Origin: Candidatus Omnitrophota bacterium | GTDB lineage: Bacteria > Omnitrophota > Gorgyraeia > Zapsychrales > Fredricksoniimonadaceae | Length of the DNA stretch: 64,000 nt | Direction: 5' to 3' | Assembly (NCBI GenBank): GCA_016201795.1 | Contig: JACQCF010000027.1 | Coordinates: forward strand, 45,454-109,453 | Shown here: positions 5,711 through 20,649 of the stretch, in pieces | How the letters are laid out: the number at the start of each line of letters is the position of its first letter | How positions within the stretch are numbered: the first letter of the stretch is position 1 | Translations under genes and position numbers: made by a program | The notes under the pieces: model-generated | What the model was told of the DNA's origin: nothing | Databases searched by the model: none | The model's input: the letters and a program-made list of their open reading frames with translations, nothing else

Positions 5711-6355
5711 ATGGTTGAGCATCTCTTAAATTATGAAACGGAAGCCCAAAATCAAGGCTTCCGTTTTGTTTTAGGAGTAGATGAGGCCGGCCGCGGTCCT
5801 TTGGCCGGGCCGGTGGTAGCCGCGGCTGTATGTTTAAAAAGTTTTGATTTTACCTGCCGTATCGATGATTCCAAAAAAATGACGCCTGCTGCCCGCCAAA
5901 AAGCTTTTGATCAGATTTCTCAAAAGGCTTATGTGGGTCTGGGACTGATTTCTGAGACAGCCATTGATCAGGTTAATATTTTAAATGCTACTTTTTTAGC
6001 CATGGAAGCCGCTGTACGGCAGCTGGTGGACCAAATCCGCAAGGAGATCAGGTCAGAGGTTTTGACGGATCAGGTTAAGATTTTGGTTGACGGCAACAGG
6101 TTTAAAACCGATTTGCCTTATGCCTATCGAGGTATTATTGGTGGAGATACCAGTAGTTTATCCATTGCCTGCGCTTCGATTATAGCCAAAACGTATCGCG
6201 ATCGTATGATGGAGCATTATGACCGCATTTTTCCCCAATACGGGTTTAAAGCCCATAAAGGTTATCCCACTGCTTTGCATAAATTGGCCATTCTGCGATA
6301 CGGTCCCTCGATTATTCATCGTAAAACATTTCAAGGGGTTCTACCAGAAAGTTGA
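5711..6355 (+). CDS. rnhB: Ribonuclease HII
   Basis: VLGVDEAGRGPLAGPVVAAAV active-site motif. Length 214 aa. Confidence 0.9.
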   Translation: MVEHLLNYETEAQNQGFRFVLGVDEAGRGPLAGPVVAAAVCLKSFDFTCRIDDSKKMTPAARQKAFDQISQKAYVGLGLISETAIDQVNILNATFLAMEAAVRQLVDQIRKEIRSEVLTDQVKILVDGNRFKTDLPYAYRGIIGGDTSSLSIACASIIAKTYRDRMMEHYDRIFPQYGFKAHKGYPTALHKLAILRYGPSIIHRKTFQGVLPES

Positions 6356-6368
6356 TGAAATATCAATT

Positions 6369-6400
6369 GACAAGTTTCATGTCGTATTATATGATATTTC
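6369..6400 (+). promoter_or_regulatory. Candidate sigma70-like promoter (TTGACA...TATTAT/TATGAT) ahead of the pilin-tra-like operon
   Basis: ttgacaagtttcatgtcgtattatatgat in the 128-nt AT-rich gap after rnhB. Also a small ATTGAT-TATAA-ATCAAT palindrome at ~6401-6417. Confidence 0.3.
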
Positions 6401-6483: not shown

Positions 6484-7368
6484 ATGTCCAACAACCTGCG
6501 CTCCTACAAACAGGGATTCTCTTTAATTGAGCTTTCCATTGCTATGGCCATTATTGCCATACTGGCTTCTTCTATTGTTCCCATAGCCATTCGTTCCCTA
6601 CAAATTAGAGCAGGGGAAAAGACCGCTTTAGAAATGGCCATGATTCAAGAAGCTAGCCGTAATTATTACATTGATCATAAAGCTTGGCCCGCAGATATTC
6701 CTACTCTTCAAGCCCAAGGTTATTTGAATCCAAATTGGACGGCATTGAACCCTTGGCATAATGCTTATCAAATCTCCAGCACCAATTTGGCTTTAACCGT
6801 AAGTACCGATGTGCCGGCTCAATGGGCTAATTTGGTCGCCAGTCATTTACCGGCAGCGATAGTTAATAATGCCAATGTATCCAGTACACTTTCCTCACCA
6901 GGGGGATCTGGCTTGCAGCCAGGAGTGATTGTGGCATGGTCTGGATCCATTGCTAATATTCCAGCAGGCTGGGCTTTGTGCGACGGTACCAACGGCACGC
7001 CGGATTTGAGGGATAAATTTATTGTCGGTGTAAGGCAAGATGACGCGGGAATTTCCAAAAGTAATATTATGGGGACTTTATTGCAAACTGGTGGATCGAC
7101 AACGCACAATCATGGCGGACAAACAGGCAGTCATACCTTAACCATAGCGGAGATACCACCGCATGATCATGCTGAAAATTACTGGGTATCCATGGATTTA
7201 TCCAACAGTATAGGACTCTATGGCAATAGTCCTGGCGGACATGCTGGTATGTTTAACCCTAGACCAAGAACTGAAATGACCGGTGGCGGCCAAGGTCATA
7301 CTCATACAATTTCGAGTGACTACAATGTACCACCGTTTTACGCGCTGGCGTTTATTATGAAATTATGA
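6484..7368 (+). CDS. Type IV prepilin/pseudopilin N-terminus fused to a phage tail-collar (T4 gp12/MdpB-like) C-terminal domain
   Basis: KQG|FSLIELSIAMAIIAILA is a class-III prepilin peptidase site with Glu+5. Residues 40-70 (EASRNYYIDHKAWPADIPTLQAQGYL) are GspG/PilE-like. The C-terminus (IPAGWALCDGTNGTPDLRDKFIVG...GGSTTHNHGGQTGSHTLTIAEIPPHDH...GGGQGHTHT) matches the tail-collar family motif (P.GW..CDG......L..F..G) with His-rich repeats. Confidence 0.7.
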   Translation: MSNNLRSYKQGFSLIELSIAMAIIAILASSIVPIAIRSLQIRAGEKTALEMAMIQEASRNYYIDHKAWPADIPTLQAQGYLNPNWTALNPWHNAYQISSTNLALTVSTDVPAQWANLVASHLPAAIVNNANVSSTLSSPGGSGLQPGVIVAWSGSIANIPAGWALCDGTNGTPDLRDKFIVGVRQDDAGISKSNIMGTLLQTGGSTTHNHGGQTGSHTLTIAEIPPHDHAENYWVSMDLSNSIGLYGNSPGGHAGMFNPRPRTEMTGGGQGHTHTISSDYNVPPFYALAFIMKL

Positions 7369-8267
7369 GCATTCTTCTCTTATTATTTTTTATTCTCAGC
7401 AACAACGTATGGGCGCAGGAAAAAACTACCCACGTCACTAAGAGTATTTTGGAATTGTCAGCTATGGCGGACTTTAAGTGCGTTCAAGCTAAACCTGTGG
7501 GCGCATGTCCTAAACCGAATCGAGAGCCGCCCATTGGTGTTAAAATGCGTTTCTGGCAGCCGGAGCTTTTTATGGAAACGGTTAAGATGCCGGGGGATTA
7601 TGTCATTGCTGAATATGGAGCGACTCTGGGGTCTTTAGCTAAGACGACGATTAAAACCGAACTTGAGCTAGTCACCCACATTAGACCTTTAACAGTGACC
7701 AGCGGCAGTTCTTTTAATAGTTTAAGTAACAGTAATTTGCAATTCAATGAAGTGCACCTGTACGACTTTCCCTCGGATGATATTTTTGATGCGCTTTGTT
7801 CAGATACTCCTAATACAACTTTGGGTATTCGCTATTTTTCAGAAGTGGATAGTATTACCTGGCGACGAGGAGATATTGAAAAAGAGCTTCCACAAAGCCT
7901 GGTTGCCGAAAATATAGGCGCACAATGTAATTATTTGGTGCTAGGAGCTACGGCGGGCCAGTGTATGAAAAGCTGGGGGCCGCTTTATCCTCGTCAGGGC
8001 TTTGTCATTACTCCCAGCGGACTGGTGAGCTCTATTGTTGATGCTTTGCGGGCCGTGAGTATTGCCTCAAATCCTTTCCCCCATTTAGTAGAGGCTCCAC
8101 TGAGCTTTCAGCCCAATATCCCTATTGATAAAGTGCAAATGGTTTATCCTGTTAAAACATCCTGCTTTCCTATAGGTCAAAACCCATCCCAGTGGGAGGC
8201 TGATAAACAATCCAAGGACGGTCATTATGTATGGATTTTCTGGCATCGACGGGAGTGCTGTATTTAG
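7365..8267 (+). CDS. TraU-like periplasmic protein (F-type T4SS pilus-assembly family), secreted
   Basis: Signal peptide ...NNVWA|QE. ACPKPNREPPIGVKMRFWQPE...MPGDYV resembles the TraU CP.PPP..R.IGL...YWEP..L...PGC block as recalled from F-plasmid TraU. Also EVHLYDFP (F-plasmid TraU has HVHWYKYP) and C-terminal QMVYPVKTSCFPIGQNP (TraU has MVNMYPDSGQCHPFG). ATGA overlap with the upstream pilin gene. Confidence 0.5.
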   Translation: MSILLLLFFILSNNVWAQEKTTHVTKSILELSAMADFKCVQAKPVGACPKPNREPPIGVKMRFWQPELFMETVKMPGDYVIAEYGATLGSLAKTTIKTELELVTHIRPLTVTSGSSFNSLSNSNLQFNEVHLYDFPSDDIFDALCSDTPNTTLGIRYFSEVDSITWRRGDIEKELPQSLVAENIGAQCNYLVLGATAGQCMKSWGPLYPRQGFVITPSGLVSSIVDALRAVSIASNPFPHLVEAPLSFQPNIPIDKVQMVYPVKTSCFPIGQNPSQWEADKQSKDGHYVWIFWHRRECCI

Positions 8268-8601
8268 AAGGCGGGTCTTAACCACCTTGTTTCTTTTGAT
8301 GACAGCCAATCTCTACGCGGCCAATCCTTATCATCTAGGCCAGGTGGATTATTTTCATGATAGACCCATCACTAAAGATACGGAAGATCAAAATCAGTCT
8401 TTTGACTGGCGCGAACCAACAGTTGCTTCCGATGGTCATATAGCGTCTTACACTCCACCGGGGCCGATGCTGACGTTATTGGAAAACCCCACGCCCGAGA
8501 ATGCCAAAGTCTATCTTGCCTGGCAGAAACAAAAGGTACAGAAAATCTTCAAGGCCCAAGAACTGATCGATCAAGTGCTCAAAGAAGGAAAGCCGCTGTG
8601 A
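8227..8601 (+). CDS. Short secreted protein resembling the TraF/TrbB N-terminal region (no thioredoxin domain)
   Basis: RRR plus hydrophobic signal peptide. LENPTPENAKVYLAWQKQKVQKIFKAQELIDQVL fits the TraF N-terminal P..N...Y..LQ......F..A pattern. 124 aa. Its 5' end overlaps the TraU-like gene by 41 nt and its stop overlaps the next start (GTGA). Confidence 0.3.
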   Translation: MYGFSGIDGSAVFRRRVLTTLFLLMTANLYAANPYHLGQVDYFHDRPITKDTEDQNQSFDWREPTVASDGHIASYTPPGPMLTLLENPTPENAKVYLAWQKQKVQKIFKAQELIDQVLKEGKPL

Positions 8602-9854
8602 TTTACTTATTATTTTTATTGCTGATTATTTCTCAAATTTCTTGTGCTGATATTTTTTCTAAAACGACAGATCAAACCTCGTTAGATGAAATGCTGGCCA
8701 AAGATTCCAGGAATTTTTATTATCGCGGCAGTTTTGACTACAATGCTTACGCTCAGCCTGAACCATCCTATGATTTGGAAAAACAGAGAATATCTTTAGG
8801 ATGCAACCGTTATGATTTCCATGAAAGTCTCAAGAATCTTTTCACCCGGCCCGAATTCAACAGCATAGAACTCCAAACTTTGATGACACAGCTTTCAACT
8901 TCCAAGCTTCTGGTTTGGGAATACAGTTCTCCAACGCTGGCTGACCTTTATAAGCATTTGGACACCGTAGGCCATTTGCGTTTGGCCATCCGTTATCATC
9001 AGTGTGAGGATTTGGAAAAAGCCGTGGATGACCCCATCGTTAAATTAAGAAAACAGGCTGTGATGGATTGTATGAAGCACCAGAAAGGCGCCAATGATAC
9101 AGATGATATAGACATTGCTTTCAAAGCCTGTTTTGATCATCTTCATGATGCTTTTAATTTTGAAAAGCCCTATGAGAATCTGGAGGACCCCGCAGATGGA
9201 AGATTTCAACTTACGGGAACAATTAATGTTACAGAAAAGACGTTAAAACGAATTGACCAAAACGGAGAAAACCTAGAGATGGTTGAGAAAATTATTCCCA
9301 ATGTCTATGTTTCAGTTAATTCTGTGCGTATCAAAGGGCCCGACATACAAAGTCGTCAATTAATAGCCCAATACCGTACCAATTTTCTTTCAAATCTTAT
9401 AGAGATGATCAAAGAATACAGGCAAAATAGAACCGTCAACCCTCAGACTTTATCATCCTTATCGGTTTTTGGCGTACCTATGACCGAAGGCCAGGTGAAA
9501 AATATTGCCATGTTGGATCATACGACTGGTTATTTAGCTATGCATAAGATCGCTTCAGAACTAGCTTATCTTAAGACCATCGATCAATATACAAAAGCCT
9601 CTGAAATGTTAAATCGAGTGATGGCGCATCCAGCCATTGAGCCCGGATATAAGACATTATTAAAAAACAGCCATGATTTTGTTCAAGAGGAAATCGTTGC
9701 TCTCAGACAGGAGAAAGAACGTCTAAGCCAATATGCCAACACCATGCACGTTATTTTAGATGAAGCGGACAGGCAACGGCTTAAAACTCTGGCGTTGATC
9801 AAGGAAGAATCTATCGGCGAAGAACAAAAAGGTTTGTTGAAGATTAATCCATGA
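8598..9854 (+). CDS. Secreted 418-aa protein, possibly TraH-like (tentative), with C-terminal coiled coil
   Basis: GTG start after GAAGGAAAG. Signal peptide IISQISCA|D. It has an N-terminal LDEMLAKD...YRGSFDY...ISLGCNRYDF segment and a C-terminal helical/coiled region. F-plasmid TraH, from memory, has FFNKLG...GGSLY...INAGCGGIDAYLG and likewise a coiled-coil C-terminus. Weak resemblance only. Confidence 0.25.
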   Translation: MIYLLFLLLIISQISCADIFSKTTDQTSLDEMLAKDSRNFYYRGSFDYNAYAQPEPSYDLEKQRISLGCNRYDFHESLKNLFTRPEFNSIELQTLMTQLSTSKLLVWEYSSPTLADLYKHLDTVGHLRLAIRYHQCEDLEKAVDDPIVKLRKQAVMDCMKHQKGANDTDDIDIAFKACFDHLHDAFNFEKPYENLEDPADGRFQLTGTINVTEKTLKRIDQNGENLEMVEKIIPNVYVSVNSVRIKGPDIQSRQLIAQYRTNFLSNLIEMIKEYRQNRTVNPQTLSSLSVFGVPMTEGQVKNIAMLDHTTGYLAMHKIASELAYLKTIDQYTKASEMLNRVMAHPAIEPGYKTLLKNSHDFVQEEIVALRQEKERLSQYANTMHVILDEADRQRLKTLALIKEESIGEEQKGLLKINP

Positions 9855-10228
9855 GCACTCAATTATTAGGAAATTATGGGGAAGAGCACGCTTGCAGGTA
9901 CCTGCAAGATAAAGGCTACAAGATCTTAGAGAAGAATTTCCGCAACAGGATGGGGGAAATTGATTTAATTGCTCAAGACAAACACACTGTATGCTTTATT
10001 GAAGTCAAAACCCGAAAATCCCTTCATTGCGGCCAGCCTTATGAATCGGTACATCCTCACAAACAGCGTAAAATCGTGCAGGTGGCTTTAACTTATTTGA
10101 AATACCGTTACCGTACGGTTGAGGTCCTATCTCGATTCGATGTCATTTCTATTTATTATCCTGCCGATGGCATCCCGGAGTTAGAACACATCGTCAATGC
10201 TTTTGATTTAACCTATTTAAGTCATTGA
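9851..10228 (+). CDS. yraN: YraN/UPF0102 family PD-(D/E)xK endonuclease-like protein
   Basis: NYGEEHACRYLQDKGYKILEKNFRNRMGEIDLIAQDKHTVCFIEVKTRKS shows D...EVK motifs typical of UPF0102. ATGA overlap with the upstream secreted-protein gene. Confidence 0.8.
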   Translation: MSTQLLGNYGEEHACRYLQDKGYKILEKNFRNRMGEIDLIAQDKHTVCFIEVKTRKSLHCGQPYESVHPHKQRKIVQVALTYLKYRYRTVEVLSRFDVISIYYPADGIPELEHIVNAFDLTYLSH

Positions 10229-10344
10229 CAAACCAGAAATTATCTATTAAACTCCCTTTAAATTTGTTGACGGTTCGTTGTTGTGACCCGTCATCCCGAG
10301 GTAACGAGGGATTTCATTAAAACAGTTTTACCAAGGAGGGTTGG

Positions 10345-10518
10345 ATGGAGAAATTATCTTTTTACGACGTGAAAACCAAGGCAAAATTTGAATCTGATGA
10401 TTATTCCGTCAAAGAAAAAAGCGGACGTTTTTTCGCCGTTACCAAATCCCTCAAAGGCTCGCATGAGTGCTGGCGCGTGTTAAGCAAAGATCAAGCCGCC
10501 AAGCTCAAAAAGAAATAA
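10345..10518 (+). CDS. Small basic hypothetical protein (57 aa), absent from the ORF track because it is under 60 aa
   Basis: ATG 7 nt after AAGGAGGG. MEKLSFYDVKTKAKFESDDYSVKEKSGRFFAVTKSLKGSHECWRVLSKDQAAKLKKK*. Strong SD, lysine-rich tail, sits directly upstream of rsfS. Confidence 0.4.
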   Translation: MEKLSFYDVKTKAKFESDDYSVKEKSGRFFAVTKSLKGSHECWRVLSKDQAAKLKKK

Positions 10519-10524
10519 GCGGGA

Positions 10525-10941
10525 GTGGTTTCTATCCGAAGCAAAGCATTAACTTCCAAACAATTAGCTAGTAAAATTGCTCAATTGGCCGATCATAAGA
10601 AGGCGCAGGACATTGTCATCCTCGATATGCGGGGGTTAGTCAACTTTTGTGATTATTTTGTCTTGGCCACCGGCACTTCTGACCGCCAGGTCAAAGCCAT
10701 TGCCGAAGGTATTTATGAAGGTTTATTGGCTCTTAGCGTGCATGTGCATCGGGGACACAATTTAAAAGGTTTAGAAACAGCCGCCTCGGTGGATGGTTTT
10801 GGCGTGTGGGTTTTGTTGGACATGGGGGACGTGGTCACGCACGTTTTTGAGCCCAATGCGCGGGAATTCTACGGTTTAGAGCATCTTTGGCAGGACGCGC
10901 CCGCCGTTGTCTATAAAGCGCGCGTGAAAAAGAATGTGTGA
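10525..10941 (+). CDS. rsfS: Ribosomal silencing factor RsfS (Iojap)
   Basis: DIVILDMRGLVNFCDYFVLATGTSDRQVKAIAEGI is the RsfS core. GTG start after GGGAG. Confidence 0.8.
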   Translation: MVSIRSKALTSKQLASKIAQLADHKKAQDIVILDMRGLVNFCDYFVLATGTSDRQVKAIAEGIYEGLLALSVHVHRGHNLKGLETAASVDGFGVWVLLDMGDVVTHVFEPNAREFYGLEHLWQDAPAVVYKARVKKNV

Positions 10942-12627
10942 ATGTTTTTCGATATTCGTCGACAACTACAGGAATTGGTTCAAAAGTCCCTACCTACCGG
11001 GCAGGCGGGTCTATCTTCCCTTGAGACCGTAGCGCCTATTTTGATTGATATTCCCGCCGACAAAGCCCATGGGGAGCTAAGCTGCAACATTGCCTTGCAA
11101 TTAAGCCGCACGCTTAAAAAAAATCCCATGGCCATTGCTGCTGATATTCTCAAAAACCTTCAACAAGAGCTCACCCAACATCCTTTAAAAAATTTTTTTG
11201 CCAACATCGAAGTTAAACAGCCGGGATTTATCAATTTTTATCTTTCCCCCCAAGGGTTTTACGCCATTTTGGAAACGGTTTTAAATAAGAAAGATGATTA
11301 TGGCAAGTCTAGTCATGGGGCGCGGACTCCATTTTGTTTGGAATTTGTCTCTGCTAATCCTACTGGACCCTTGACCGTGGCCCATGGCCGTCAGGCCGCC
11401 GTGGGCGATAGCCTGGTTAATGTCCTTAAAACCGTCGGCTACAAAGCCCAAAAAGAGTATTACGTCAACGACGAAGGCAATCAAATCAATATTTTAGGCC
11501 GCAGTATTTATTTTCGCGCCAAAGAAATTTTAGGCGATAAGGCTGAATTTCCCGAGGATGGCTATCAGGGTGATTATATCCGTACCATCGCAGAGGAGTT
11601 TATTAAAAAACATGCCATAAAGGCCTCAGGGGCTTTGGAGAAGATCAACCCTCAACAATGGCGTCAATTTGGGGCGGATTATTTGATGGGGTTAATCAAA
11701 AAAGATTTGGAAGATTTTAACGTTCATTTTGATATTTGGTCTTATCAAAGCAAAATTGCCACCACCAAAGCTATGGAAAGGGTGTTGGCCGATTTTAACG
11801 CAAAAGGCTATATTTATGAGCATGAAGGCGCCTGGTGGTTTAAATCCACGCAGTGGGGCGATGACAAAGACCGGGTGGTTAAAAAAAGTAATGGCGAATA
11901 CACCTATTTGACTCCGGATATCGTCTATCATCAAGATAAATTCGCCCGGGGTTTCAAACATATCGTCGATATTTTAGGTCCTGACCATCACGGCTATATC
12001 CCGCGTATTAAAGCCGCGGCCGCGGCTCTGGGCAAAAGCGTGGATGATCTAGATGTGGTCATCGTACAGCTGGCTACCATTTACCGAAGCGGCAAGCCGG
12101 TGTCTATGTCCACCCGTCGGGGAGAATTTATTACCTTACGCGAGGTGATGGATGAAGTCGGTACAGACGCGGCCCGTTTCTTTTTTCTCATGCGTCAGAC
12201 CGATGCTCATTTGGATTTTGATTTGGAGTTGGCTAAAAAGACTAGCGCTGAGAATCCGGTGTATTACATTCAGTATGCCCACGCGCGCATTCACAGCATT
12301 ATCCGCAAAGCTACCGATGAATCACATTTGACGCCCAGGCTTAAAAGTTTTAGCCTGCTCAAAGAAGTCGAAGAAATGGATTTGATGCGCAAAATGGCGC
12401 TTTATCCGCAGGTGCTTTTAATCTGCGCCAAACAATTGGATCCTTTTGCTTTGGGGCGTTATCTGCAGGAGTTAGCTGGATGTTTTCATAAGTTTTATGA
12501 TGCCCATCGCGTTTTGGATGAGAACAAAGAGCTTTCCCGTGAGCGTTTGGCTTTAATCGAAGCCGCCCGCATCGTCTTGGGCAATGGCTTAAGACTGTTA
12601 GGTGTAACCGCTCCCGAGAAGATGTGA
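10942..12627 (+). CDS. argS: Arginine--tRNA ligase
   Basis: Class I motifs SANPTGPLTVAHGR (HIGH-like) and MSTRRGE (KMSKS-like). DALR anticodon-binding C-terminus. 561 aa. Confidence 0.9.
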   Translation: MFFDIRRQLQELVQKSLPTGQAGLSSLETVAPILIDIPADKAHGELSCNIALQLSRTLKKNPMAIAADILKNLQQELTQHPLKNFFANIEVKQPGFINFYLSPQGFYAILETVLNKKDDYGKSSHGARTPFCLEFVSANPTGPLTVAHGRQAAVGDSLVNVLKTVGYKAQKEYYVNDEGNQINILGRSIYFRAKEILGDKAEFPEDGYQGDYIRTIAEEFIKKHAIKASGALEKINPQQWRQFGADYLMGLIKKDLEDFNVHFDIWSYQSKIATTKAMERVLADFNAKGYIYEHEGAWWFKSTQWGDDKDRVVKKSNGEYTYLTPDIVYHQDKFARGFKHIVDILGPDHHGYIPRIKAAAAALGKSVDDLDVVIVQLATIYRSGKPVSMSTRRGEFITLREVMDEVGTDAARFFFLMRQTDAHLDFDLELAKKTSAENPVYYIQYAHARIHSIIRKATDESHLTPRLKSFSLLKEVEEMDLMRKMALYPQVLLICAKQLDPFALGRYLQELAGCFHKFYDAHRVLDENKELSRERLALIEAARIVLGNGLRLLGVTAPEKM

Positions 12628-12631
12628 AATC

Positions 12632-14320
12632 ATGAACAAACGTTGGATTATCAAAGCCTCTGACCCCCGGCTTCAAAAAGAACTCAGCGACGCTTTAGGC
12701 ATTCATCCGATCCTCGCCCAGCTTCTGATTAATCGCCAGATCACCACCATTGAGGGGGCCCGCCGTTTTTTAACCGCCGATTTATCCATGCTGCATAATC
12801 CGTTTCTTTTGACCGATATGGATAAAGCGGTTGAGCGTATTCAAAGAGCTCAAAGTAATAACGAAAAAATTCTTATCTATGGCGATTACGATGTGGATGG
12901 GGTCACTTCCAGCGCTTTGCTTCGACGTTTGCTTAAACGTCTGGGTATCACGGCGGTCAATTATATTCCGCATCGCATGGAAGAGGGTTATGGCCTTAAT
13001 TGTGGTATTGTAGAATTCGCTAAGAGCTTGAACGTTCATTTGATTATCACTGTGGATTGCGGCATCAATGCCTTTGGCCCTATTGAGGCCATTCATCGCG
13101 CGGGTATGGATGTGATTATTATTGACCATCACGAACCCGACGCAGAGAAAATTCCTCAAGCCCTGGCGGTCATTGACCCCAAACGTTCAGATTGTCTGTA
13201 TCCGTTTAAAAATTTATCCGCGGTGGGGCTGGTGGCGAAATTAGCCCAGGCTTTGTTGGGTTTTGTCCCGGAAGAGGATTTGGATTTGGTGGCTATTGGT
13301 ACGGTGGCTGATGTGGTGGCACTTCGTTGTGAGAATCGTATTTTTGTCAAAAAGGGATTGCCTTTGATCGAGCGAAGTCAGAAACACGGCTTGCAGGCGC
13401 TGTTGGAGGTAGCTAAAATCGCTGGCAAAAAAATGAAACCCTATTATATCGGTTTTATTTTGGGCCCCCGGCTTAATGCGGCCGGCCGCATGGATTCAGC
13501 AACGGTCGCGTTGGATCTTTTATTATCCGAAGATCCCATGCAAGCGGCGGTTTTGGCTAAAAGCCTGGAAGAGCATAATCAAAGCCGTCAGAAAATGCAA
13601 AACGCGGTTGTTGAGGAAGCGCTAAGCATTATTGAAAACCAGGAAGGTTTAAAGGATCAGCAGATTATTGTGGTGCACAAAGAAGGATGGCATAAAGGGG
13701 TTTTAGGGATTGTGGCTTCACGTATTGTGGAAAAATATTATCGACCCACCATTGTGATTTCCATCGAGGATGGGATGGGCACAGGCTCGGCGCGTTCCAT
13801 TGAAGGCTTTCATTTGCATGAAGCGCTCACCAGCTGCGCCGGGTCGCTGGAGAATTACGGCGGGCATCAAAGGGCCGCGGGTCTACGTTTGCGTCAGGAG
13901 AATATCGACCAATTTCGTCAGGCCATCAATGACTTTGCCCGCGAAGTGTTTAAGGATCAGGAATTGGTACCGACGCTGAATATTGATTGCGAAATTCCGC
14001 TTTCAAGCGTTGATTTGCCGATGGTGGAACTCATTGAATCCATGGAGCCGCATGGCGAAGGTAACCCGGTGCCGATTTTTTGCTCCCGGCGTTTGACGGT
14101 CAAAAGTTCCCCGGTGGTGTTAGGCCGTGATACGCTGAAATTCTGGATCAGCGATGGCGGCAAAACTTATTCCGCTGTTGGTTTTGGCATGGGGACGATG
14201 AAAGACAAAGTTAAAATGGGAAGCCAGCTGGATTTAGCCTACAGTTTGGGTATTGATGATTGGAACAAAGCGCCTCTGGTGCAGTTGATCATAAAAGATA
14301 TCAGAACGGTTAATGGTTAA
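12632..14320 (+). CDS. recJ: Single-stranded-DNA-specific exonuclease RecJ
   Basis: DHH motifs ILIYGDYDVDGVTS, IITVDCG and IIIDHHEP, plus a DHHA1 region with GGHQRAAGL. Confidence 0.85.
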   Translation: MNKRWIIKASDPRLQKELSDALGIHPILAQLLINRQITTIEGARRFLTADLSMLHNPFLLTDMDKAVERIQRAQSNNEKILIYGDYDVDGVTSSALLRRLLKRLGITAVNYIPHRMEEGYGLNCGIVEFAKSLNVHLIITVDCGINAFGPIEAIHRAGMDVIIIDHHEPDAEKIPQALAVIDPKRSDCLYPFKNLSAVGLVAKLAQALLGFVPEEDLDLVAIGTVADVVALRCENRIFVKKGLPLIERSQKHGLQALLEVAKIAGKKMKPYYIGFILGPRLNAAGRMDSATVALDLLLSEDPMQAAVLAKSLEEHNQSRQKMQNAVVEEALSIIENQEGLKDQQIIVVHKEGWHKGVLGIVASRIVEKYYRPTIVISIEDGMGTGSARSIEGFHLHEALTSCAGSLENYGGHQRAAGLRLRQENIDQFRQAINDFAREVFKDQELVPTLNIDCEIPLSSVDLPMVELIESMEPHGEGNPVPIFCSRRLTVKSSPVVLGRDTLKFWISDGGKTYSAVGFGMGTMKDKVKMGSQLDLAYSLGIDDWNKAPLVQLIIKDIRTVNG

Positions 14321-14350
14321 TAGTACATTTAACTTTTCACCATTGACTGA

Positions 14351-14578
14351 TTATGCCGCGCGAATAATTTTATTGGCTTGAATGCAGCTGGTGCACACCA
14401 GAGCTCTTTGGACGGTTCCGTGCAGAATAATTTTAATGCGCTGCAAATTCGGCTTCATCACACGGAGGGTTTTACCGACGATTTTGGAACCGGCACCGCC
14501 TTTTTTCTTTGCCATACCGCGTCTTTTATATTTCCTGCCTGGTGCTGCAGATTTGGCGCAAATGATACAATCTCTCAT
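14351..14578 (-). CDS. rpmB: 50S ribosomal protein L28, zinc-ribbon (C+) form
   Basis: MRDCIICAKS...KPNLQRIKIILHGTVQRALVCTSCIQANKIIRAA has the CxxC...CxxC pairs and the PNLQ motif of bL28. GAGGT SD 8 nt upstream of this ATG. The track ORF (to 14695) is a spurious 5' extension. Confidence 0.7.
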   Translation of the reverse strand: MRDCIICAKSAAPGRKYKRRGMAKKKGGAGSKIVGKTLRVMKPNLQRIKIILHGTVQRALVCTSCIQANKIIRAA

Positions 14579-14682
14579 GAAAATGACCTCAAATAGGATG
14601 GTGCAATGAAGATTGCTAACGACTGATTGGTCAAATATACTGGAAATTATATGCTTGTCAAGGGATTTTAGGAAAGGAAACC

Positions 14683-16401
14683 ATGGATTTAGCACAATTG
14701 CCCGCTTATCAACAACGTACCTTTGTGCCTGAGGCAGCGGACTTAACAGATGTCAAGATCGTCAAGGACCTCTATCAAAAATTACTGGATCGGCCCATCT
14801 ATTCCTCTCAAGAGTTGCAAGAGTGGCTTTTGGAGCGCTCGGAATTGGATGCTGCCTTAAATCAAACCGCCTCCATTTTGTATATCCACATGACCTGCCA
14901 TACGGATGACCCTCAAAGCGCAGGGCCCTATACCCAATTTATTCAAACCGTGCCGCCGGCGGTTAAACCTCTTAATGATGAGCTTAATCGTAAATATCTT
15001 AAAATCCTTAAATCTTATCCTTTGGATGCCAGCCGCTATCAGGTGTATAACCGTGCCACGGCCACAGATGTAGACTTGTTCATTGAGGCTAATGTGCCTT
15101 TGCAAACCAAGGTGGATTTATTGTCGCAGGAATATCAAACCGTTTGCGGGGCCATGACGGTTGATTTCGACGGCAAAGAGCAGACCATGCCGCAAATAGC
15201 TAAATATCTGCTGGAGCCTGCCCGCCAAAAACGTGAAGATGCCTGGCGCGCCATGACCAAGCGGCGCATGGCCGATAAAGACAGACTCGAGCATATTTTT
15301 GATGAGATGTTTAAAGACCGCTGTCAGATCGCGGCCAATGCGAGAATGAACAATTTTATTGAGTATCAATTCCGCGCCTATCATCGTTTTGACTATACTC
15401 CATCGGACTGCAAAAAATATCATGAAACAGTTGAGAAACTGGTGGTGCCGCTCTACAGTGAAATTTTAAAGAAACGCCGGCAAGAGATGAAATTAAAGAG
15501 CCTAAGGCCGTGGGACATGGCGGTGGACCCGCAGGGCCGCAAACCTTTGAAACCTTTTGAGAAAGTTTCTGATCTAACGGTCAAGACACAGAAGATTTTT
15601 AATGATCTCGATAATGAACTTGGTAGCCAGTTTCAGCAGATGAAGAATTTGGGGCTTTTGGATTTGGAAAGTCACAAAGGCAAAGCTCCTGGGGGCTATC
15701 AAAATACTCTCAGTGAGGCGCGCAGACCTTTTATTTTTATGAACGCCGTCGGGGTGGATGATGATGTGCGCACATTGCTGCACGAGGGGGGTCACGCGTT
15801 TCACGCGCTGGCTTGTGCCCAGGATCCCTTGCTGGATTATCGCCATGCGCCGATGGAATTTTGTGAATTGGCCTCCATGGCCATGGAGCTTTTAGGCGGC
15901 CAGTACATGGACGAGTTTTATACGCTCGAGGATACCAAACGCTCTAACCGTGAGCATTTGGAGAGCATGGTGCATATTTTAGTGTGGGCGGCTAACATCG
16001 ACGCGTTTCAGCACTGGCTGTATGAGCATCCGAATCATTCGCCGCATGAGCGCCGTCAGGCGTGGGTTAGTTTTTACCAGCAATTCGGCGGCAAATTTCT
16101 GGATTGGCAGGACCTTAAAGAAGAGCAGGCGTATCTATGGCATCGCCAGTTGCATATTTTTGAAGTACCCCTTTACTATATCGAATACGGTATTGCCCAA
16201 CTGGGAGCTTTGCAATTGTGGCTCAAGGCCAAGAAAGATCCTAAGAAAGCTTTGGCGGATTATCGTCATAGCCTTTCCCTGGGCGGTTCCCGGCCCCTGC
16301 CTGAGCTCTACGAGGCTGCTGGCATTAAATTTGATTTTTCGCAAGAGCTCATCAAACCTTTGGTTGACGAAGTTTATAAAGAGTGGTCAAAATTATGGTG
16401 A
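14683..16401 (+). CDS. pepF: Oligoendopeptidase F (M3B family)
   Basis: HEGGHAFH zinc motif, 572 aa, M3B architecture. Confidence 0.85.
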   Translation: MDLAQLPAYQQRTFVPEAADLTDVKIVKDLYQKLLDRPIYSSQELQEWLLERSELDAALNQTASILYIHMTCHTDDPQSAGPYTQFIQTVPPAVKPLNDELNRKYLKILKSYPLDASRYQVYNRATATDVDLFIEANVPLQTKVDLLSQEYQTVCGAMTVDFDGKEQTMPQIAKYLLEPARQKREDAWRAMTKRRMADKDRLEHIFDEMFKDRCQIAANARMNNFIEYQFRAYHRFDYTPSDCKKYHETVEKLVVPLYSEILKKRRQEMKLKSLRPWDMAVDPQGRKPLKPFEKVSDLTVKTQKIFNDLDNELGSQFQQMKNLGLLDLESHKGKAPGGYQNTLSEARRPFIFMNAVGVDDDVRTLLHEGGHAFHALACAQDPLLDYRHAPMEFCELASMAMELLGGQYMDEFYTLEDTKRSNREHLESMVHILVWAANIDAFQHWLYEHPNHSPHERRQAWVSFYQQFGGKFLDWQDLKEEQAYLWHRQLHIFEVPLYYIEYGIAQLGALQLWLKAKKDPKKALADYRHSLSLGGSRPLPELYEAAGIKFDFSQELIKPLVDEVYKEWSKLW

Positions 16402-16438
16402 GTGAGTGTAACGAGTCGAACTTGACCTTCCCCCAACA

Positions 16439-16855
16439 ATGTTAAGAAAAACACATATTACTTTCAAAATCCTCCTGTTTTTGATCTCTATAGATTTACT
16501 GGAAACCTTTGTTCAATTTTGTTTTAAAAAAACCGCTTTGGCTAACAGTAGCTTTGAAGTTAAAACTTTGGAAGGTATTACTCATTTCATCACGGGAGTC
16601 GCTATCTCTCCTTTTTTATGGCTGGCTTTAGCGTCTGTGTTATTGATATTTATTATCTGGTCAACCATACTCTCCAAAATTGATTTAAGCGTCGCTGTTG
16701 CTGTTAACAGTTTTAGTTTTATAACCATTCCGTTGGTATCCGTGGTTTTTTTGCATGAAAGAATTTCTCTTTTAAGGTGGCTGGGGATATTCATCATTTT
16801 AATAGGGGTGGTTCTAGTATCGCTTAGCAGCAAGCCCAAGGAATATCAGCCATGA
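16439..16855 (+). CDS. Half-size (4-TM) EamA/DMT-superfamily membrane protein, ArnE/ArnF-like
   Basis: 138 aa, four hydrophobic helices, EamA-like topology. ATGA overlap with its paralogue downstream. Confidence 0.55.
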   Translation: MLRKTHITFKILLFLISIDLLETFVQFCFKKTALANSSFEVKTLEGITHFITGVAISPFLWLALASVLLIFIIWSTILSKIDLSVAVAVNSFSFITIPLVSVVFLHERISLLRWLGIFIILIGVVLVSLSSKPKEYQP

Positions 16856-17232
16856 AATCACAGCTGGTCCTTATAATATTTTGGATATTCGCATCCGACG
16901 TTTGTGATACTATTTGCCAATTATTGTTAAAATTTTGTATTAATTCTCTGGGATGGCACATCGATAGTATTAAAAAAGCCTTACAACTGACTTTTGAGTT
17001 AGCTAAAATTCCAGTGGCCTGGCTGGGGCTTATGTTCAGTATTTTTTCTTTGTTTATTTGGTTATTTGTTCTGACCCGATCAGATTTAAACTTTGCTTTC
17101 TCTGCTGATAGCATGCGTTATATTTTAATCGCCGTAGCTTCAACGGCCGTATTAAAAGAGAAAATCGGTTTTATGCGCTGGGCAGGAATAGGGACGGTGG
17201 TGTGTGGAATAACACTGGTGGCCTTGGGGTAG
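16852..17232 (+). CDS. Second half-size EamA/DMT protein (probable heterodimer partner)
   Basis: 126 aa, 4 TM. Paired small DMT subunits as in the ArnE/ArnF flippase. Confidence 0.55.
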   Translation: MKSQLVLIIFWIFASDVCDTICQLLLKFCINSLGWHIDSIKKALQLTFELAKIPVAWLGLMFSIFSLFIWLFVLTRSDLNFAFSADSMRYILIAVASTAVLKEKIGFMRWAGIGTVVCGITLVALG

Positions 17233-17245
17233 GCCTGAGGGCTCA

Positions 17246-18388
17246 ATGATGGGATCTCGTTTAAAAGTTAAAATTGTCAAAAAAATTGAGGATGTTTCTG
17301 CGCAAGAGTGGAAGAGCGTCTTTCCCGATGTATTGGAGAATTATTATTTTTTTAAAACTCTCAATGAGTCTAACTTCCGGCAGTTTATATTCTTTTATAT
17401 TTTAGTTTATGACCAGGATATTCTCATCGGGGCCACCAGCTGTTTTATAATGGATTTTCCTTTGGACATTGCCGTCAGCGGGATCTTAAAGAAATTGACG
17501 GGTTTTATTAAAAGTTTTGTGCCGCGGCTTTTGAGCCCCAGGATTCTTATTTGCGGCCTGCCGATGGGGCAGGGAAGGATAGGAATAAAGGCCCAGTCGT
17601 GTAAAGTCATGCAAGCCATCACGCAAGCCATGGACGAAATCGCTCATCAGCAGAAAGTCGGCATTATCGCATTTAAAGATTTTATTTCCGATTACAAAGA
17701 AGCGTTTGATCCTTTGCTTGAGCAAGGTTTTTTCAGAATAGATTCCCTGCCATCTACGTATATGGACATTACTTTTGCCAGTTTTGATGAGTATTTAAAA
17801 TCATTAAGCAGTGTATCTAGAAGCGGTTTGAAAAGAAAATTTAAGGAAATAGACGGTAAAATCAATATTGATTTGGAAGTCACCAGTCAATTAAAGAACA
17901 ATGACTTGCAGGAGGTTTATGCCCTTTATTTGCAGACCTATGCGCGCAGTGAAATTAGCTTGGAAAAACTCACTCCTGATTTTTTTCAAAAAATATCGGA
18001 AAATATGCCCCATGAGGTTAAATTTTTCCTTTGGCGGATTAATCATAAGATAGTGGCATTTGCTTTATGCATGGTGTCCAGAGATTATTTTATTGATTAT
18101 TATCTGGGGTTTGATTATGGGGTGGCTTATCAGTACCATCTTTATTATGTCAGATTCAGGGATCTGATGAAATGGTGTATTGAGAATAATATGAAGAAAT
18201 ATGAAATGGGCCCCACGGCCTATGAGCCTAAAAGAAGGCTAAATTTTAGTTTTATTCCATTACATATTTATGCCAGACATCGGAATAAATTTTTTAACCC
18301 CATTTTTAGAATTTTCTGCCATATAGTAAAGCCGTCTAATTTTGATCCGGTATTTGTCAAAGTTCGTCCTAAAGTTTGTAGTTTATAG
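17246..18388 (+). CDS. GNAT-fold FemAB-like / PF04339 (BioF2-like) family acyltransferase
   Basis: ~380 aa with C-terminal ...YYLGFDYG...YEMGPTAYEPKRRLNFSFIPLHIYARH, resembling the conserved E.G...HK...GF.P.....H tail of PF04339 proteins. Confidence 0.5.
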   Translation: MMGSRLKVKIVKKIEDVSAQEWKSVFPDVLENYYFFKTLNESNFRQFIFFYILVYDQDILIGATSCFIMDFPLDIAVSGILKKLTGFIKSFVPRLLSPRILICGLPMGQGRIGIKAQSCKVMQAITQAMDEIAHQQKVGIIAFKDFISDYKEAFDPLLEQGFFRIDSLPSTYMDITFASFDEYLKSLSSVSRSGLKRKFKEIDGKINIDLEVTSQLKNNDLQEVYALYLQTYARSEISLEKLTPDFFQKISENMPHEVKFFLWRINHKIVAFALCMVSRDYFIDYYLGFDYGVAYQYHLYYVRFRDLMKWCIENNMKKYEMGPTAYEPKRRLNFSFIPLHIYARHRNKFFNPIFRIFCHIVKPSNFDPVFVKVRPKVCSL

Positions 18389-18398
18389 CTAAAGAGAC

Positions 18399-18944
18399 AT
18401 GCGTAAACTAACCCACGAAGAAATCGTCCATCGTCAAACGGCCAAAGTAAACCAGGTGCGATTGCCGTTTTGCGTGGTGCTCAACAATATCCGCAGTTTG
18501 CATAATGTGGGCTCCATTTTCCGCACGGCCGATGGTGTTGGTGTTGAGAAGATTTGGCTGTGCGGCATCACCGGCTATCCGCCGCAGGGCGGCATTGCCA
18601 AAACCGCTTTAGGCGCCGAAGATCATGTACCTTGGGGCTACCGTCAGGACGGCTTAGGTCTTTTGAAGGAGCTTAAGGCTAAAGACTATCAAATCGTGCT
18701 TCTGGAGCAAATGCAAGGGGCTGTGAGTTACGATGAATTTATCCTCAAGCCGCCGGTATGTTTGGTGATCGGCAATGAGATTTCCGGTGTTTCTGATGCC
18801 TGGCTTGAGCTTTGTGATGCGGCTGTTGACATCGACATGGCCGGCATCAAAAATTCCCTCAATGTGTCCGTAGCTTTCGGTGTGATGGCCTATCAAATCC
18901 GCTCCTGCCTTAAACCTCTTGCGCAAAAACCATTGCGACGTTAG
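18399..18944 (+). CDS. TrmH/SpoU family RNA 2'-O-methyltransferase
   Basis: NVGSIFRTADGVGVEKIWLCGITGYP and VIGNEISGVS...SLNVSVAFGV SPOUT motifs. Confidence 0.75.
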   Translation: MRKLTHEEIVHRQTAKVNQVRLPFCVVLNNIRSLHNVGSIFRTADGVGVEKIWLCGITGYPPQGGIAKTALGAEDHVPWGYRQDGLGLLKELKAKDYQIVLLEQMQGAVSYDEFILKPPVCLVIGNEISGVSDAWLELCDAAVDIDMAGIKNSLNVSVAFGVMAYQIRSCLKPLAQKPLRR

Positions 18945-18954
18945 AATAATTTCC

Positions 18955-19176
18955 ATGAATATCGATGCCAAGAAACTTTTACGCAATAAGAAAGTCATCG
19001 CGGAAATCAACCGGCATAAATGGCTGGAAAGCGAAATTGCCGGCTACGATATCGGTTTTGAAGCCGCGGCTGAGAGTTGGCTTAAAAACCACGCTGTCGC
19101 CTGGGTGGCTTACCATATGAAAAACTCCTCCACAACATCCGCCGCAAGCGCCTCTAAAAAGAAAAAACGGTCTTAA
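18955..19176 (+). CDS. Hypothetical small protein with Ser/Lys-rich tail
   Basis: ORF with ATG at 18955. Track start 18919 would overlap the trmH-like gene. No recognisable domain. Confidence 0.3.
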   Translation: MNIDAKKLLRNKKVIAEINRHKWLESEIAGYDIGFEAAAESWLKNHAVAWVAYHMKNSSTTSAASASKKKKRS

Positions 19177-19181
19177 AAACC

Positions 19182-19925
19182 ATGAAGATATTGTTCTATC
19201 GGGGAATTTTAACAGCGCTGTTAGTGAGTGCGTTTGCATGGAGTGTTTGGGCCCAGGATAAAATGAATTTGCCATCGCCGTCAGGTTATGTCAATGACTT
19301 TGCCGGTATGATGGAGCCCGTGGATCAGCAGGCCATTAATGCTTTGTTGACGGCGTTAGAATCAAAAACCACCACCCAGGTGGCCGTGGTCATCGTCGTA
19401 ACCACCCAACCTGACACAATCGAACAATACGCGGTCAAGCTCTTTCAAAAATGGGGCATCGGACAAAAAGGTAAAGATAACGGCGTTTTGTTTTTAATCG
19501 CGGTGCGTGACCACACTTTACGAATTGAAGTCGGCTATGGTTTAGAGGGTGTTTTAACGGATGCGATTAGTTCTCAGGTTATTAGTCAGATTGTCGTACC
19601 TGAATTTAAGCACGAGCGGATGTCCTATGGTATTTTGCAGGGTACCAGAGCCATTGTCAGTTTGATTGCCAAAGAGTATGGGGTGACTGTCACGGGTCAG
19701 GAAGCGGCGATTTACAACAGTCTTCATAGCGACACCTCAGGACTTTGGATTATTGTTTTTGTGTTTATCCTTATTTTTATGTTTTATGCTTTTTCGTTTA
19801 GCCGTCGTGGTGTAGGCTGGTATGGTTATTATGGTGGGGGCGGCGGTTTCTCAGGCGGTTCCGGAGGGTTTGGCGGTTTCGGTGGAGGTATGAGCGGCGG
19901 CGGGGGAGCGAGTGGAAGTTGGTAA
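19182..19925 (+). CDS. TPM-domain (TLP18.3/Psb32/YgcG-like) protein with C-terminal TM and Gly-rich tail
   Basis: Signal peptide, then GYVNDFAGMMEP...LESKTTTQVAVVIV...GIGQKGKDNGVLFLIAVRDHTLRIEVGYGLEG is the TPM phosphatase-domain signature. Followed by a TM helix and a GGGGFSGGSGGFGG tail. Confidence 0.75.
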   Translation: MKILFYRGILTALLVSAFAWSVWAQDKMNLPSPSGYVNDFAGMMEPVDQQAINALLTALESKTTTQVAVVIVVTTQPDTIEQYAVKLFQKWGIGQKGKDNGVLFLIAVRDHTLRIEVGYGLEGVLTDAISSQVISQIVVPEFKHERMSYGILQGTRAIVSLIAKEYGVTVTGQEAAIYNSLHSDTSGLWIIVFVFILIFMFYAFSFSRRGVGWYGYYGGGGGFSGGSGGFGGFGGGMSGGGGASGSW

Positions 19926-19987
19926 GTTTTAAGGTAGTCCCTCGCTTATGCAATAAAGCTCAAAGAGCTCGGGATTAATTCGCACTT

Positions 19988-20019
19988 ATAACTTATGTCG
20001 CTATTACTCCATAAGTTAT
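19988..20019. promoter_or_regulatory. 10-bp inverted repeat ATAACTTATG-N12-CATAAGTTAT upstream of lemA
   Basis: Perfect 10-nt arms read directly. Centred ~35 nt upstream of the lemA ATG, overlapping the likely promoter. Confidence 0.3.
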
Positions 20020-20040
20020 GTGCTCATTAAGGAGACTCAT

Positions 20041-20607
20041 ATGAAAAACATATGGATTGCTTTAGGAGTTATTGTAGTTTTAGGCTTTGTTGGTTTTAGT
20101 TGGTACCAGGGCGGTTTCAATCAGATGATTGCCTTAGACCAGGGGGTTAAATCCAGCTGGGCTCAGGTGGAAAATCAATTGCAGCGGCGTTTTGACCTTA
20201 TCCCTAATTTGGTGAATACCGTCAAGGGTTATGCTGCTCATGAAAAAAGTATTTTGGAAGAGGTGACCCGTTTAAGAAGCCAGTGGGCTCAGGCCGCGTC
20301 GGTACCTGATAAGGTGGCCGCGGCCAACTCTTTAAGCGGGGCGCTCTCGAGGCTTTTGTTGGTTAGTGAAAATTATCCGAATTTGAAAGCAGATCAAACT
20401 TTCCTGACTTTACAAAGCCAGCTGGAGGGAACGGAGAATCGTATTGCGGTTGAGCGCATGCGTTACAACCAGGCCGTCGAAGCATTCAATTCCTATCAGC
20501 GTTCATTTTTTGGGCGGTATTTTGCCAGTCAGACCGGTTTAAGCGAACCAGCGGTTTATTTTAAAGCGGAAGAAACAGCAAAACAGGTCCCAAAAGTACA
20601 ATTTTAA
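20041..20607 (+). CDS. lemA: LemA family membrane protein
   Basis: N-terminal TM, then NQMIALDQGVKSSWAQVENQLQRRFDLIPNLVNTVKGYAAHEKSIL is the LemA signature. AAGGAG SD 7 nt upstream. The track start at 20020 is a GTG extension. Confidence 0.8.
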   Translation: MKNIWIALGVIVVLGFVGFSWYQGGFNQMIALDQGVKSSWAQVENQLQRRFDLIPNLVNTVKGYAAHEKSILEEVTRLRSQWAQAASVPDKVAAANSLSGALSRLLLVSENYPNLKADQTFLTLQSQLEGTENRIAVERMRYNQAVEAFNSYQRSFFGRYFASQTGLSEPAVYFKAEETAKQVPKVQF

Positions 20608-20608
20608 C

Positions 20609-20635
20609 GTAGGGGCGATTAATAATCGCCCGTAC
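20609..20635. repeat. Hairpin element copy 1: GTAG-GGGCGATT-AAT-AATCGCCC-GTACA
   Basis: Perfect 8-bp GC-rich stem 2 nt after the lemA stop. Shares flanks and stem ends with the copy at 48649-48676. Confidence 0.4.
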
Positions 20636-20649
20636 AAGAAAGAGGGTTT

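Follow-up and report, generated by a model that had tools for sequence, protein, structure and literature searches.

The present analysis concerns a 64-kb stretch of DNA from a Candidatus Omnitrophota bacterium (assembly GCA_016201795.1, contig JACQCF010000027.1, positions 45,454 to 109,453), referred to here as the window, and within it a block of four genes at positions 6484-9854 that encode a tail-fibre pilin and relatives of the conjugation proteins TraU, TraF and TraH. These four genes probably represent the distal operon of a composite cell-contact machine conserved in Omnitrophota chromosomes. Comparison with related loci indicates that in the lineage of the window the cluster has very probably been split, with its 5′ part elsewhere in the genome and its last block left beside the gene yraN. 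Pairs of a type IV secretion system (T4SS) with a type IVb pilus (T4bP) are already known, as is the block of TraU, thioredoxin-like and TIGR03755-type proteins. The interleaved operon, the fusion of a pilin with a tail-fibre domain, the fixed chromosomal site with phylum-wide spread and the repeated, adhesin-retaining splits are new.

Proteins of the four-gene block

The block consists of four packed genes on the + strand, flanked by rnhB and yraN. They are the pilin gene (6484-7368, 294 amino acids (aa)), the TraU gene (7365-8267, 300 aa), a TraF/TrbB-like gene with the N-terminal region only, termed TraF-N (8227-8601, 124 aa), and a TraH-like gene (8598-9854, 418 aa), the last three open reading frames (ORFs) being confirmed in strand and length as first annotated. 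Stop and start codons overlap by 4 nt (ATGA/GTGA) at three junctions, pilin/TraU, TraF-N/TraH-like and TraH-like/yraN, and the start of the TraF-N ORF overlaps the 3′ end of TraU by 41 nt. The initial annotation, which was made from the sequence alone, had described the module as translationally coupled to a type IV pilin. This is borne out by the pilin/TraU overlap and by a linkage conserved in relatives, the pilin gene lying directly 5′ of TraU in nearly all related loci. A hydrophobic, signal-like N-terminus can be read from the sequence of each of the TraU, TraF-N and TraH-like proteins.

The 300-aa protein matches the Pfam TraU family (PF06834) over its full length (E=1.9e-28; score 100.2 bits, cut-off 26.5; residues 35-299 corresponding to profile positions 29-304 of 306), as its initial designation as TraU-like had anticipated. 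Its match to TIGR03756, an integrative and conjugative element (ICE) family, reaches 64.3 bits (E=1e-17), below the equivalog cut-off of 188.35, and that to the F-plasmid TraU equivalog NF010297 reaches 28 bits (E=1e-6), below a cut-off of 298. Its closest plasmid relatives share 23-35% identity with it and are nearly all annotated as TIGR03756. On these scores the window TraU is a divergent branch, nearer to TIGR03756 than to F-plasmid TraU. The label MPF-F (mating-pair formation type F), under which the module was first placed, is imprecise, as TraU and TraH relatives score better on the ICE families TIGR03756 and TIGR03755 than on F-plasmid TraU. C48, C267 and C299 do not vary among 31 homologues, and C39, C145 and C298 hardly do. 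The hydrophobic leader, as read from the sequence, ends at VWA/QE, marking a Cys-rich secreted or periplasmic protein. The closest relative of the window is locus L052, in which TraU is 88% identical. Against it, the ratio of nonsynonymous to synonymous substitution rates (dN/dS) is 0.14 for TraU (dS 0.47) and 0.22 for the pilin (dS 0.82), which indicates purifying selection on both.

The 124-aa protein has no match in Pfam, TraF (PF13728) included at E≤10, and none in NCBIfam. Over its entire length it can be aligned with the N-terminal half of Omnitrophota proteins of 243-256 aa encoded at the same gene position (phmmer E=1e-13 to 1e-15). These longer homologues have a C-terminal thioredoxin fold with CPxC, and those of 243 and 256 aa, at 31.6 and 35.2 bits, exceed the Pfam TraF cut-off of 23. 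The window protein retains the signal peptide and the PxPENAKxYLxWQ...AQ helix, with P88, N92, A93, Y96, W99, A110 and Q111 invariant in the alignment, and ends where the thioredoxin domain of the homologues starts. Judged by this alignment it is TraF/TrbB-like, consisting of the N-terminal region only, without the thioredoxin domain, in agreement with the pattern originally noticed. The truncation is not a sign of decay, because L049, a complete contiguous cluster, likewise has TraF-N only. As a separate observation, full-length Omnitrophota TraF-like proteins carry CPxC (GCPVC and GCPYC) in L021 (11331-12062) and L015 (11436-12206). A second thioredoxin-like gene lies 5′ of full-length TraF, so that such clusters encode two potentially redox-active thioredoxin-fold proteins each.

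The 418-aa protein likewise has no direct Pfam match, TraH (PF06122) included. Its sole direct match is to TIGR03755 (E=1.8e-6), at 27 bits far below the cut-off of 270.45. A homologue in Ca. Velamenicoccus archaeovorus (phmmer E=1e-53) provides the intermediate, since it matches Pfam TraH at 50.2 bits (E=3e-13 for homologues) and TIGR03755 at E=1e-13. Pfam TraH is matched by 6 of the 32 family members. A profile of the family picks out the ORF directly 3′ of TraU/TIGR03756 in loci of Pseudomonas, Legionellales, Vibrio, Thiotrichales and Dickeya, and this position just 3′ of TraU (and TraF) in a T4SS cluster is kept in Omnitrophota, Planctomycetota and proteobacterial loci alike. An exhaustive profile search returned only 161 representatives of the family. 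Ten distant profile matches were tested; TIGR03755 was the only match in nine of them (18-50 bits, far below its cut-off), and one passed the TraH threshold. Through these intermediates and the profile search, the 418-aa protein is placed as a divergent member of the TraH/TIGR03755 superfamily, and the TraH-like layout first attributed to it holds by this indirect route. Of the three Pfam assignments put forward in the initial annotation, that to TraU was thus obtained directly, and those to TraF and TraH failed directly and were obtained through homologues. The protein has four Cys residues in its N-terminal half, and motif and Cys columns are invariant across 18 TraH-like sequences. An AlphaFold2 model of medium confidence (mean predicted local distance difference test score 69.5) is helical, with long C-terminal helices at residues 308-343 and 349-416. 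A Foldseek search of this model against the PDB gave no relative (best E=0.2); to our knowledge no TraH structure has been solved, which fits this null result.

The first gene of the block encodes a protein with a class III leader (MSNNLRSYKQG, followed by FSLIELSIAMAIIAILASS; KQG/FSLIEL, with G-1, F+1 and E+5) and then a hydrophobic helix, as in type IV pilins, and with matches to N_methyl (E=1.2e-7) and TIGR02532 (E=7e-8). A search of the pilin family profile against PDB sequences related the C-terminal residues, approximately 160, to the tail-fibre chains 9qgo (E=2e-20), 9nxk (2e-17) and 6ov6 (5e-12) and to T4 gp12 (9e-5), and the end motif PPYYALAFIMK is common to the pilin family and these chains. 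In addition, the C-terminal 168 aa of the window pilin gave 185 matches to phage records. Its score against Pfam Collar (PF07484) is 19.8 bits against a cut-off of 24, and the L006 homologue has a recorded Collar match. The sub-threshold score is explained by the absence from the window copy of a segment of ca. 26 residues typical of Collar (consensus ...SR.DY..LF.VIGT.YG.GDG.TTF., alignment columns ca. 247-272), which is present in the copies of L006, L018, L023, L025, L028 and L031. On this homology the protein combines a type IV pilin with the tip (“collar”) domain of a phage tail fibre, and by analogy with PilV it is a putative pilus adhesin. A Pfam scan of the window pilin gave no Shufflon_N match.

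The wider cluster and its division

The locus sample comprised TraU homologues in 40 clusters, with a scan of species-representative genomes yielding 39 loci, and architectures were obtained by mapping reference proteins onto every locus. Loci with TraU homologues are almost all from Omnitrophota, with a few from Planctomycetota and distant ones from Proteobacteria. The pilus machine adjoins the module in 18 of the 39 loci. In the commonest architecture (type A), a PilB-type ATPase, a PilC-type platform, a PilS/bundlin-type pilin, a small pilin and the tail-fibre pilin, with a secretin among the genes ahead of them in some cases, precede TraU, an optional thioredoxin-like gene (Trx), TraF or TraF-N, and TraH. 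In another (type B*; L004 and L052) TraB/TraV run straight into the pilins and TraU, and in type C the bare module lies beside yraN, as in the window, L001, L003, L006, L008, L010 and L012. The inserted pilus set comprises a secretin, the PilB-type ATPase, the PilC-type platform, a PilS/bundlin-type major pilin and minor pilins, the PilS domain being found only in the major pilin of relatives.

A contiguous supercluster is present on the complete chromosome of Ca. Velamenicoccus archaeovorus (CP019384, 602,710-636,108) and in GCA_013565695. Its first part runs from TraG_N and the coupling protein, through further genes, to TraE, TraK, TraB, TraV, TraC, a small protein and the secretin, and its second part continues with two to four unknown genes, PilB, PilC, pilins, the tail-fibre pilin, TraU, (Trx), TraF(-N) and TraH. 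The T4SS gene set of the supercluster in relatives includes TraL, TraE, TraK, TraB, TraV and TraC, and TraC itself is widespread in Omnitrophota (168 clusters, roughly 45-57% identity). As TraC and the module stand in one cluster in both genomes, the ancestral unit is read as an F/GI-like (GI, genomic island) T4SS operon with type IVb-like pilus genes between TraC and TraU.

The window itself contains no T4SS core and no pilus machine, as searched by tblastn with the Tra proteins of a relative and by Pfam on 20 large ORFs; TraL, TraE, TraK, TraB and TraV of the relative returned noise only. The core is present in relatives, so that the word orphan is true of the window only and not of the genome lineage. 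The earlier statement that there is no T4SS core accordingly stands for these 64 kb and fails for the lineage, where a TraL/E/K/B/V/C cluster occurs in relatives and in a sister genome. In that sister assembly, GCA_044225175, the bare module lies on contig 1 (820 kb), and the genes from TraL to TraC are found together with those for the secretin, PilB, PilC and pilins on a 214-kb contig that lacks TraU, TraF and TraH. Unrelated lipopolysaccharide genes stand directly 3′ of the 5′-part genes on the 214-kb contig, and the break point falls exactly upstream of the tail-fibre pilin. GCA_044225175 is thus a proven case of a split locus. The initial annotation had viewed the module as orphan and domesticated and had itself named a split locus as the finding that would overturn this view. 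With the contiguous relatives and GCA_044225175 in hand that view is abandoned, the block being the distal part of a larger cluster.

For the genome of the window, the TraH-like protein is 100% identical to MBI3602617.1 (HY209_06990), gene number 1,398 of its metagenome-assembled genome (MAG), on a contig of 200,936 bp. A TraC protein, P0088 (MBI3601277.1, on a 13.8-kb contig), lies 1,340 accessions before it and is 72% identical to the TraC of the sister genome. In a second MAG with a bare module (L003) a TraC lies 745 accessions away; it is 74.5% identical to P0088 and is the sole one of the seven TraCs of that project in the same clade. From accession proximity and clade congruence, the genome of the window quite probably holds the 5′ part. 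Splits recur among the relatives, and the adhesin pilin is always kept with the TraU/TraF/TraH trio, L014 being the one exception. An apparently orphan module in a 64-kb window can therefore be half of a split locus.

Several points weigh against the reading of the block as the distal operon of such a machine and against its split. The split of GCA_044225175 holds if its two contigs were binned correctly. The assignment of TraC to the MAG of the window was made by accession numbering and is borderline, the first protein of that MAG being predicted at about MBI3601262-1290. In L014 (9566-12714) TraU, TraF-N, TraH and yraN occur without an upstream pilin, and in L023 and L025 no TraH-like gene was found within 10 kb, even by the hidden Markov model of the family. 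Furthermore, none of the flanks examined showed a relaxase, and TraW, TrbC and TraN were not detected, from which it follows that the T4SS may not be a standard conjugation machine.

Known systems, alternatives and possible function

The GI/ICE-type (MPF-G) T4SSs of ICEclc, PAPI-1 and ICEHin1056, and of relatives such as Vibrio tubiashii p123, share the order TraC, thioredoxin-like protein, TraU (TIGR03756/IceU), TIGR03755-type protein and TraG_N (PMC10018362), and it is against their families that the window proteins score best, the nearest plasmid matches also being annotated TIGR03756. IceU (TraU) and the TIGR03755 protein of ICEclc are located in the envelope and indispensable for transfer (PMC10018362), and PAPI-1 also requires a type IVb pilus (PMC12857230). 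Unlike these systems, the window proteins lie far below the equivalog cut-offs (64 vs 188 bits and 27 vs 270), and the Omnitrophota clusters place the pilus genes inside the T4SS operon between TraC and TraU and include a TraF-like gene. They are also chromosomal, at a fixed site, sometimes split, and with no relaxase or integrase seen in the flanks.

The F plasmid offers a second comparison, its interaction group consisting of TraH as hub with TraF, TraU, TrbI and TrbB. TraH binds TraU, TrbI and TraF, contact with TraF being made through the TraF N-terminal domain, and the outer membrane is the site with which TraF, TraH and TraU are associated (PMC7555446). TraF and TraH are regarded as a node between the F-specific proteins and the outer-membrane core and are essential for transfer and piliation, to both of which TraU contributes (PMC10939261). 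The window resembles this group in its direct Pfam match to TraU and its matches to TraF and TraH via homologues, and it keeps TraH with two direct partners, the TraF remnant being the TraH-binding N-domain (PMC7555446, PMC10939261). It differs in that TraW, TrbC, TraN and TrbI were not detected, the longer TraF-like proteins of relatives have CPxC whereas F TraF lacks CxxC, and F has no type IV pilin. The block is also a natural experiment on the F-specific proteins, which are poorly understood: TraH and TraU have been retained together with no more of TraF than the part that binds TraH, always next to a pilin adhesin.

On the pilus side, the IncI type IVb thin pilus (R64, TP114) has the PilN secretin, PilQ ATPase, PilR platform, PilS pilin and PilV adhesin, and the relatives of the window similarly have a secretin, a T2SSE ATPase, a T2SSF platform and a PilS-domain major pilin beside the T4SS, together with a minor pilin bearing a large C-terminal binding domain like PilV. 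PilV is the adhesin of the IncI PilS pilus and sets recipient specificity (PMC9045228, PMC12857230). In the Omnitrophota, by contrast, the adhesin domain is a phage tail-fibre tip rather than Shufflon_N/PilV, no shufflon was seen, and the partner T4SS is F/GI-like rather than Dot/Icm-like. The C-terminal ca. 160 residues of the pilin family are homologous to the tail-fibre tip, or “tail collar”, of phages (T4 gp12; PDB 9qgo, 9nxk and 6ov6), the domain here having a type IV pilin N-terminus in place of the fibre shaft.

These parallels lend themselves to an alternative in which the cluster is an ordinary self-transmissible element conjugating DNA between Omnitrophota, with its type IVb pilus acting as in IncI/PAPI-1 and without a part in predation or in contact with a host. 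In its favour, the gene order is collinear with that of ICE T4SSs, L015 and V. archaeovorus have a coupling protein, and every known pair of T4bP and T4SS is conjugative (PMC12857230, PMC9045228). Set against this are the lack of any relaxase or element integrase in the flanks read, the fixed housekeeping neighbourhood yraN-rsfS-argS-recJ and the division of the cluster between loci in some genomes. In addition, TraC and the module form parallel clades, a pattern suggestive of vertical descent. Taken together, we consider an exclusively conjugative element rather unlikely.

A true orphan, with TraU, TraF-N and TraH turned by domestication into helpers of a type IV pilus that work in the absence of a T4SS core, appears improbable. 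It is in keeping with 64 kb devoid of T4SS and type IV pilus machinery, with the trio staying with the tail-fibre pilin and not with TraC in broken clusters, and with L007 and L013, where PilB/PilC adjoin the module and the genes upstream are unrelated. It is contradicted by the full TraL-to-TraC-to-PilC set on another contig of the bare-module sister genome and by the matching TraC that is probably present in the MAG of the window and in the second bare-module MAG. The trio also belongs to a T4SS in pilus-free loci (L015, L036 and L042) and in proteobacterial elements. Least probable is a decaying, non-functional remnant of an integrated conjugative element. In its favour are the truncated architectures (e.g. 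L004 and L052, with TraV straight into pilins), the loss of the thioredoxin domain and gene in the window and the insertion of toxin-antitoxin and other genes in relatives. Against it stand intact ORFs with translational coupling, dN/dS values of 0.14-0.22, invariant Cys and motif columns in 31 TraU and 18 TraH-like sequences, a chromosomal position shared by many species and the recurrence of the TraF-N-only state in the complete cluster L049.

For the favoured reading, a composite cell-contact machine, gene identities, synteny, the split and purifying selection are direct results, and we infer from here on every protein-protein contact and the biological role. The pilus would be built by the PilB/PilC/secretin set and would display the tail-fibre-domain pilin, which may bind a glycan on the surface of another cell, as do PilV of IncI pili and gp12 of phage T4. 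TraH would act as a periplasmic, outer-membrane-associated hub that binds TraU and the TraF N-domain and ties them to the TraK/B/V core, supporting pilus dynamics and a stable cell-cell junction, after which a TraC-powered channel would transport macromolecules. The biological role could be attachment to and attack on prey or host, or DNA exchange. Prey or host contact is attractive because of the lifestyle of Ca. V. archaeovorus, the only studied member of these abundant, uncultured nanobacteria, which preys on bacteria and archaea. A conserved chromosomal cluster in which a secretion channel and a retractile-type pilus with a phage-derived adhesin are interleaved is a concrete and testable candidate for a prey-gripping or killing apparatus.

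A more specific proposal, offered tentatively and thought doubtful, is that the trio no longer serves a T4SS pilus and instead physically couples the tail-fibre-tipped type IVb pilus to the TraK/B/V/C channel. This would form a hybrid grappling-and-injection machine with which ultra-small predatory or parasitic Omnitrophota seize other cells, including archaea, for attack or exchange of material. The persistent linkage of adhesin pilin and trio through every rearrangement would then be the footprint of coupling.

The earlier description of the arrangement as previously undescribed may still hold for the composite system, for which our searches of the accessible literature turned up no account. 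Seymour et al. 2023 and a 2026 complete-genome preprint treat Tad and type IVa pili, and this cluster is absent from both.

Neighbouring genes and minor observations

Upstream of the block lies rnhB (5711-6355), and in the 128-bp gap between it and the pilin gene a sigma-70-like sequence, TTGACA-17-TATGAT (6367-6395, + strand; 11 of 12 consensus positions), is the best consensus match of the region. It is a candidate promoter only, because the region contains no more such matches than expected from shuffling. Downstream follows yraN (9851-10228, + strand), encoding a UPF0102 predicted nuclease (PF02021, E=1.1e-30). It adjoins the module in the window, L001, L003, L004, L006, L007, L008, L010, L012, L014, L027 and L034/L049, and the Velamenicoccus group has no yraN downstream of the module. 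The gene is a universal housekeeping gene and is probably a marker of the chromosomal site, not a component of the system. A part for it in the system is unproven, given its housekeeping nature, its absence 3′ in the Velamenicoccus group and the resemblance of rnhB-yraN to a chromosomal site. The other genes of the window are housekeeping genes (SpoIID, queA, tgt, trmD, rplS, rsfS, argS, recJ, suf genes, ispG/H, amino-acid biosynthesis genes and valS).

The upstream neighbourhood of the window (trmD, rplS, rnhB) differs from that of L001 and L006, where a prepilin peptidase gene (A24_N_bact and Peptidase_A24; L001 3026-4018, L006 1282-2274) lies 6-7 kb 5′ of the bare module within a housekeeping run of aroE, aroK, dprA, topA and xerC. 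An upstream XerC-like gene was considered as an element integrase and ruled out, being part of the dprA-topA-xerC housekeeping run.

Between yraN and rsfS the window has a basic 57-aa ORF (10345-10518, + strand; MEKLSFYDVKTK...AAKLKKK), which shares 51 of its 57 residues with L001 13370-13543, compared with only 64% identity for the flanking TraU; the gene is called at the same yraN-rsfS position in L001, L003, L006, L008 and L050. Further downstream, a putatively secreted 247-aa protein (19182-19925, + strand) has, after a C-terminal transmembrane segment, a long Gly-rich tail (...GGGGGFSGGSGGFGGFGGGMSGGGGASGSW).

Irregularities of gene order are seen in a few related loci. In L014, the one exception to pilin-TraU linkage, a SpoVG-like 92-aa gene and two-component regulators lie 5′ of TraU. 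L023 and L025 (about 8100-14300) are rearranged, with pilins, TraU, TraF-N and a protein of ca. 150 aa, and PilB and PilC downstream. In L048 (21646-22516; V. archaeovorus CP019384) a GNAT acetyltransferase/TacA1-type toxin-antitoxin pair on the opposite strand stands between the tail-fibre pilin and TraU, the only case in which this junction is interrupted by an insertion. An NYN-domain gene is inserted 5′ of TraE in the V. archaeovorus cluster, and an ORF6N gene precedes TraC in L049. Just 3′ of the module neighbourhood stand very long, scarcely annotated ORFs, in L004 one of 1,598 aa with no Pfam match (12407-17203) and in L006 a 2,638-aa SNF2/helicase protein (18302-21233+).

Records labelled “Woesearchaeota archaeon” or “uncultured Planctomycetales bacterium” (L035, which is the 1.2-kb contig CAZGIL010000129.1, L009, L014, L022, L027 and L034) bear typical Omnitrophota TraU/Trx/TraF blocks and were probably misbinned or mislabelled in the source assemblies.

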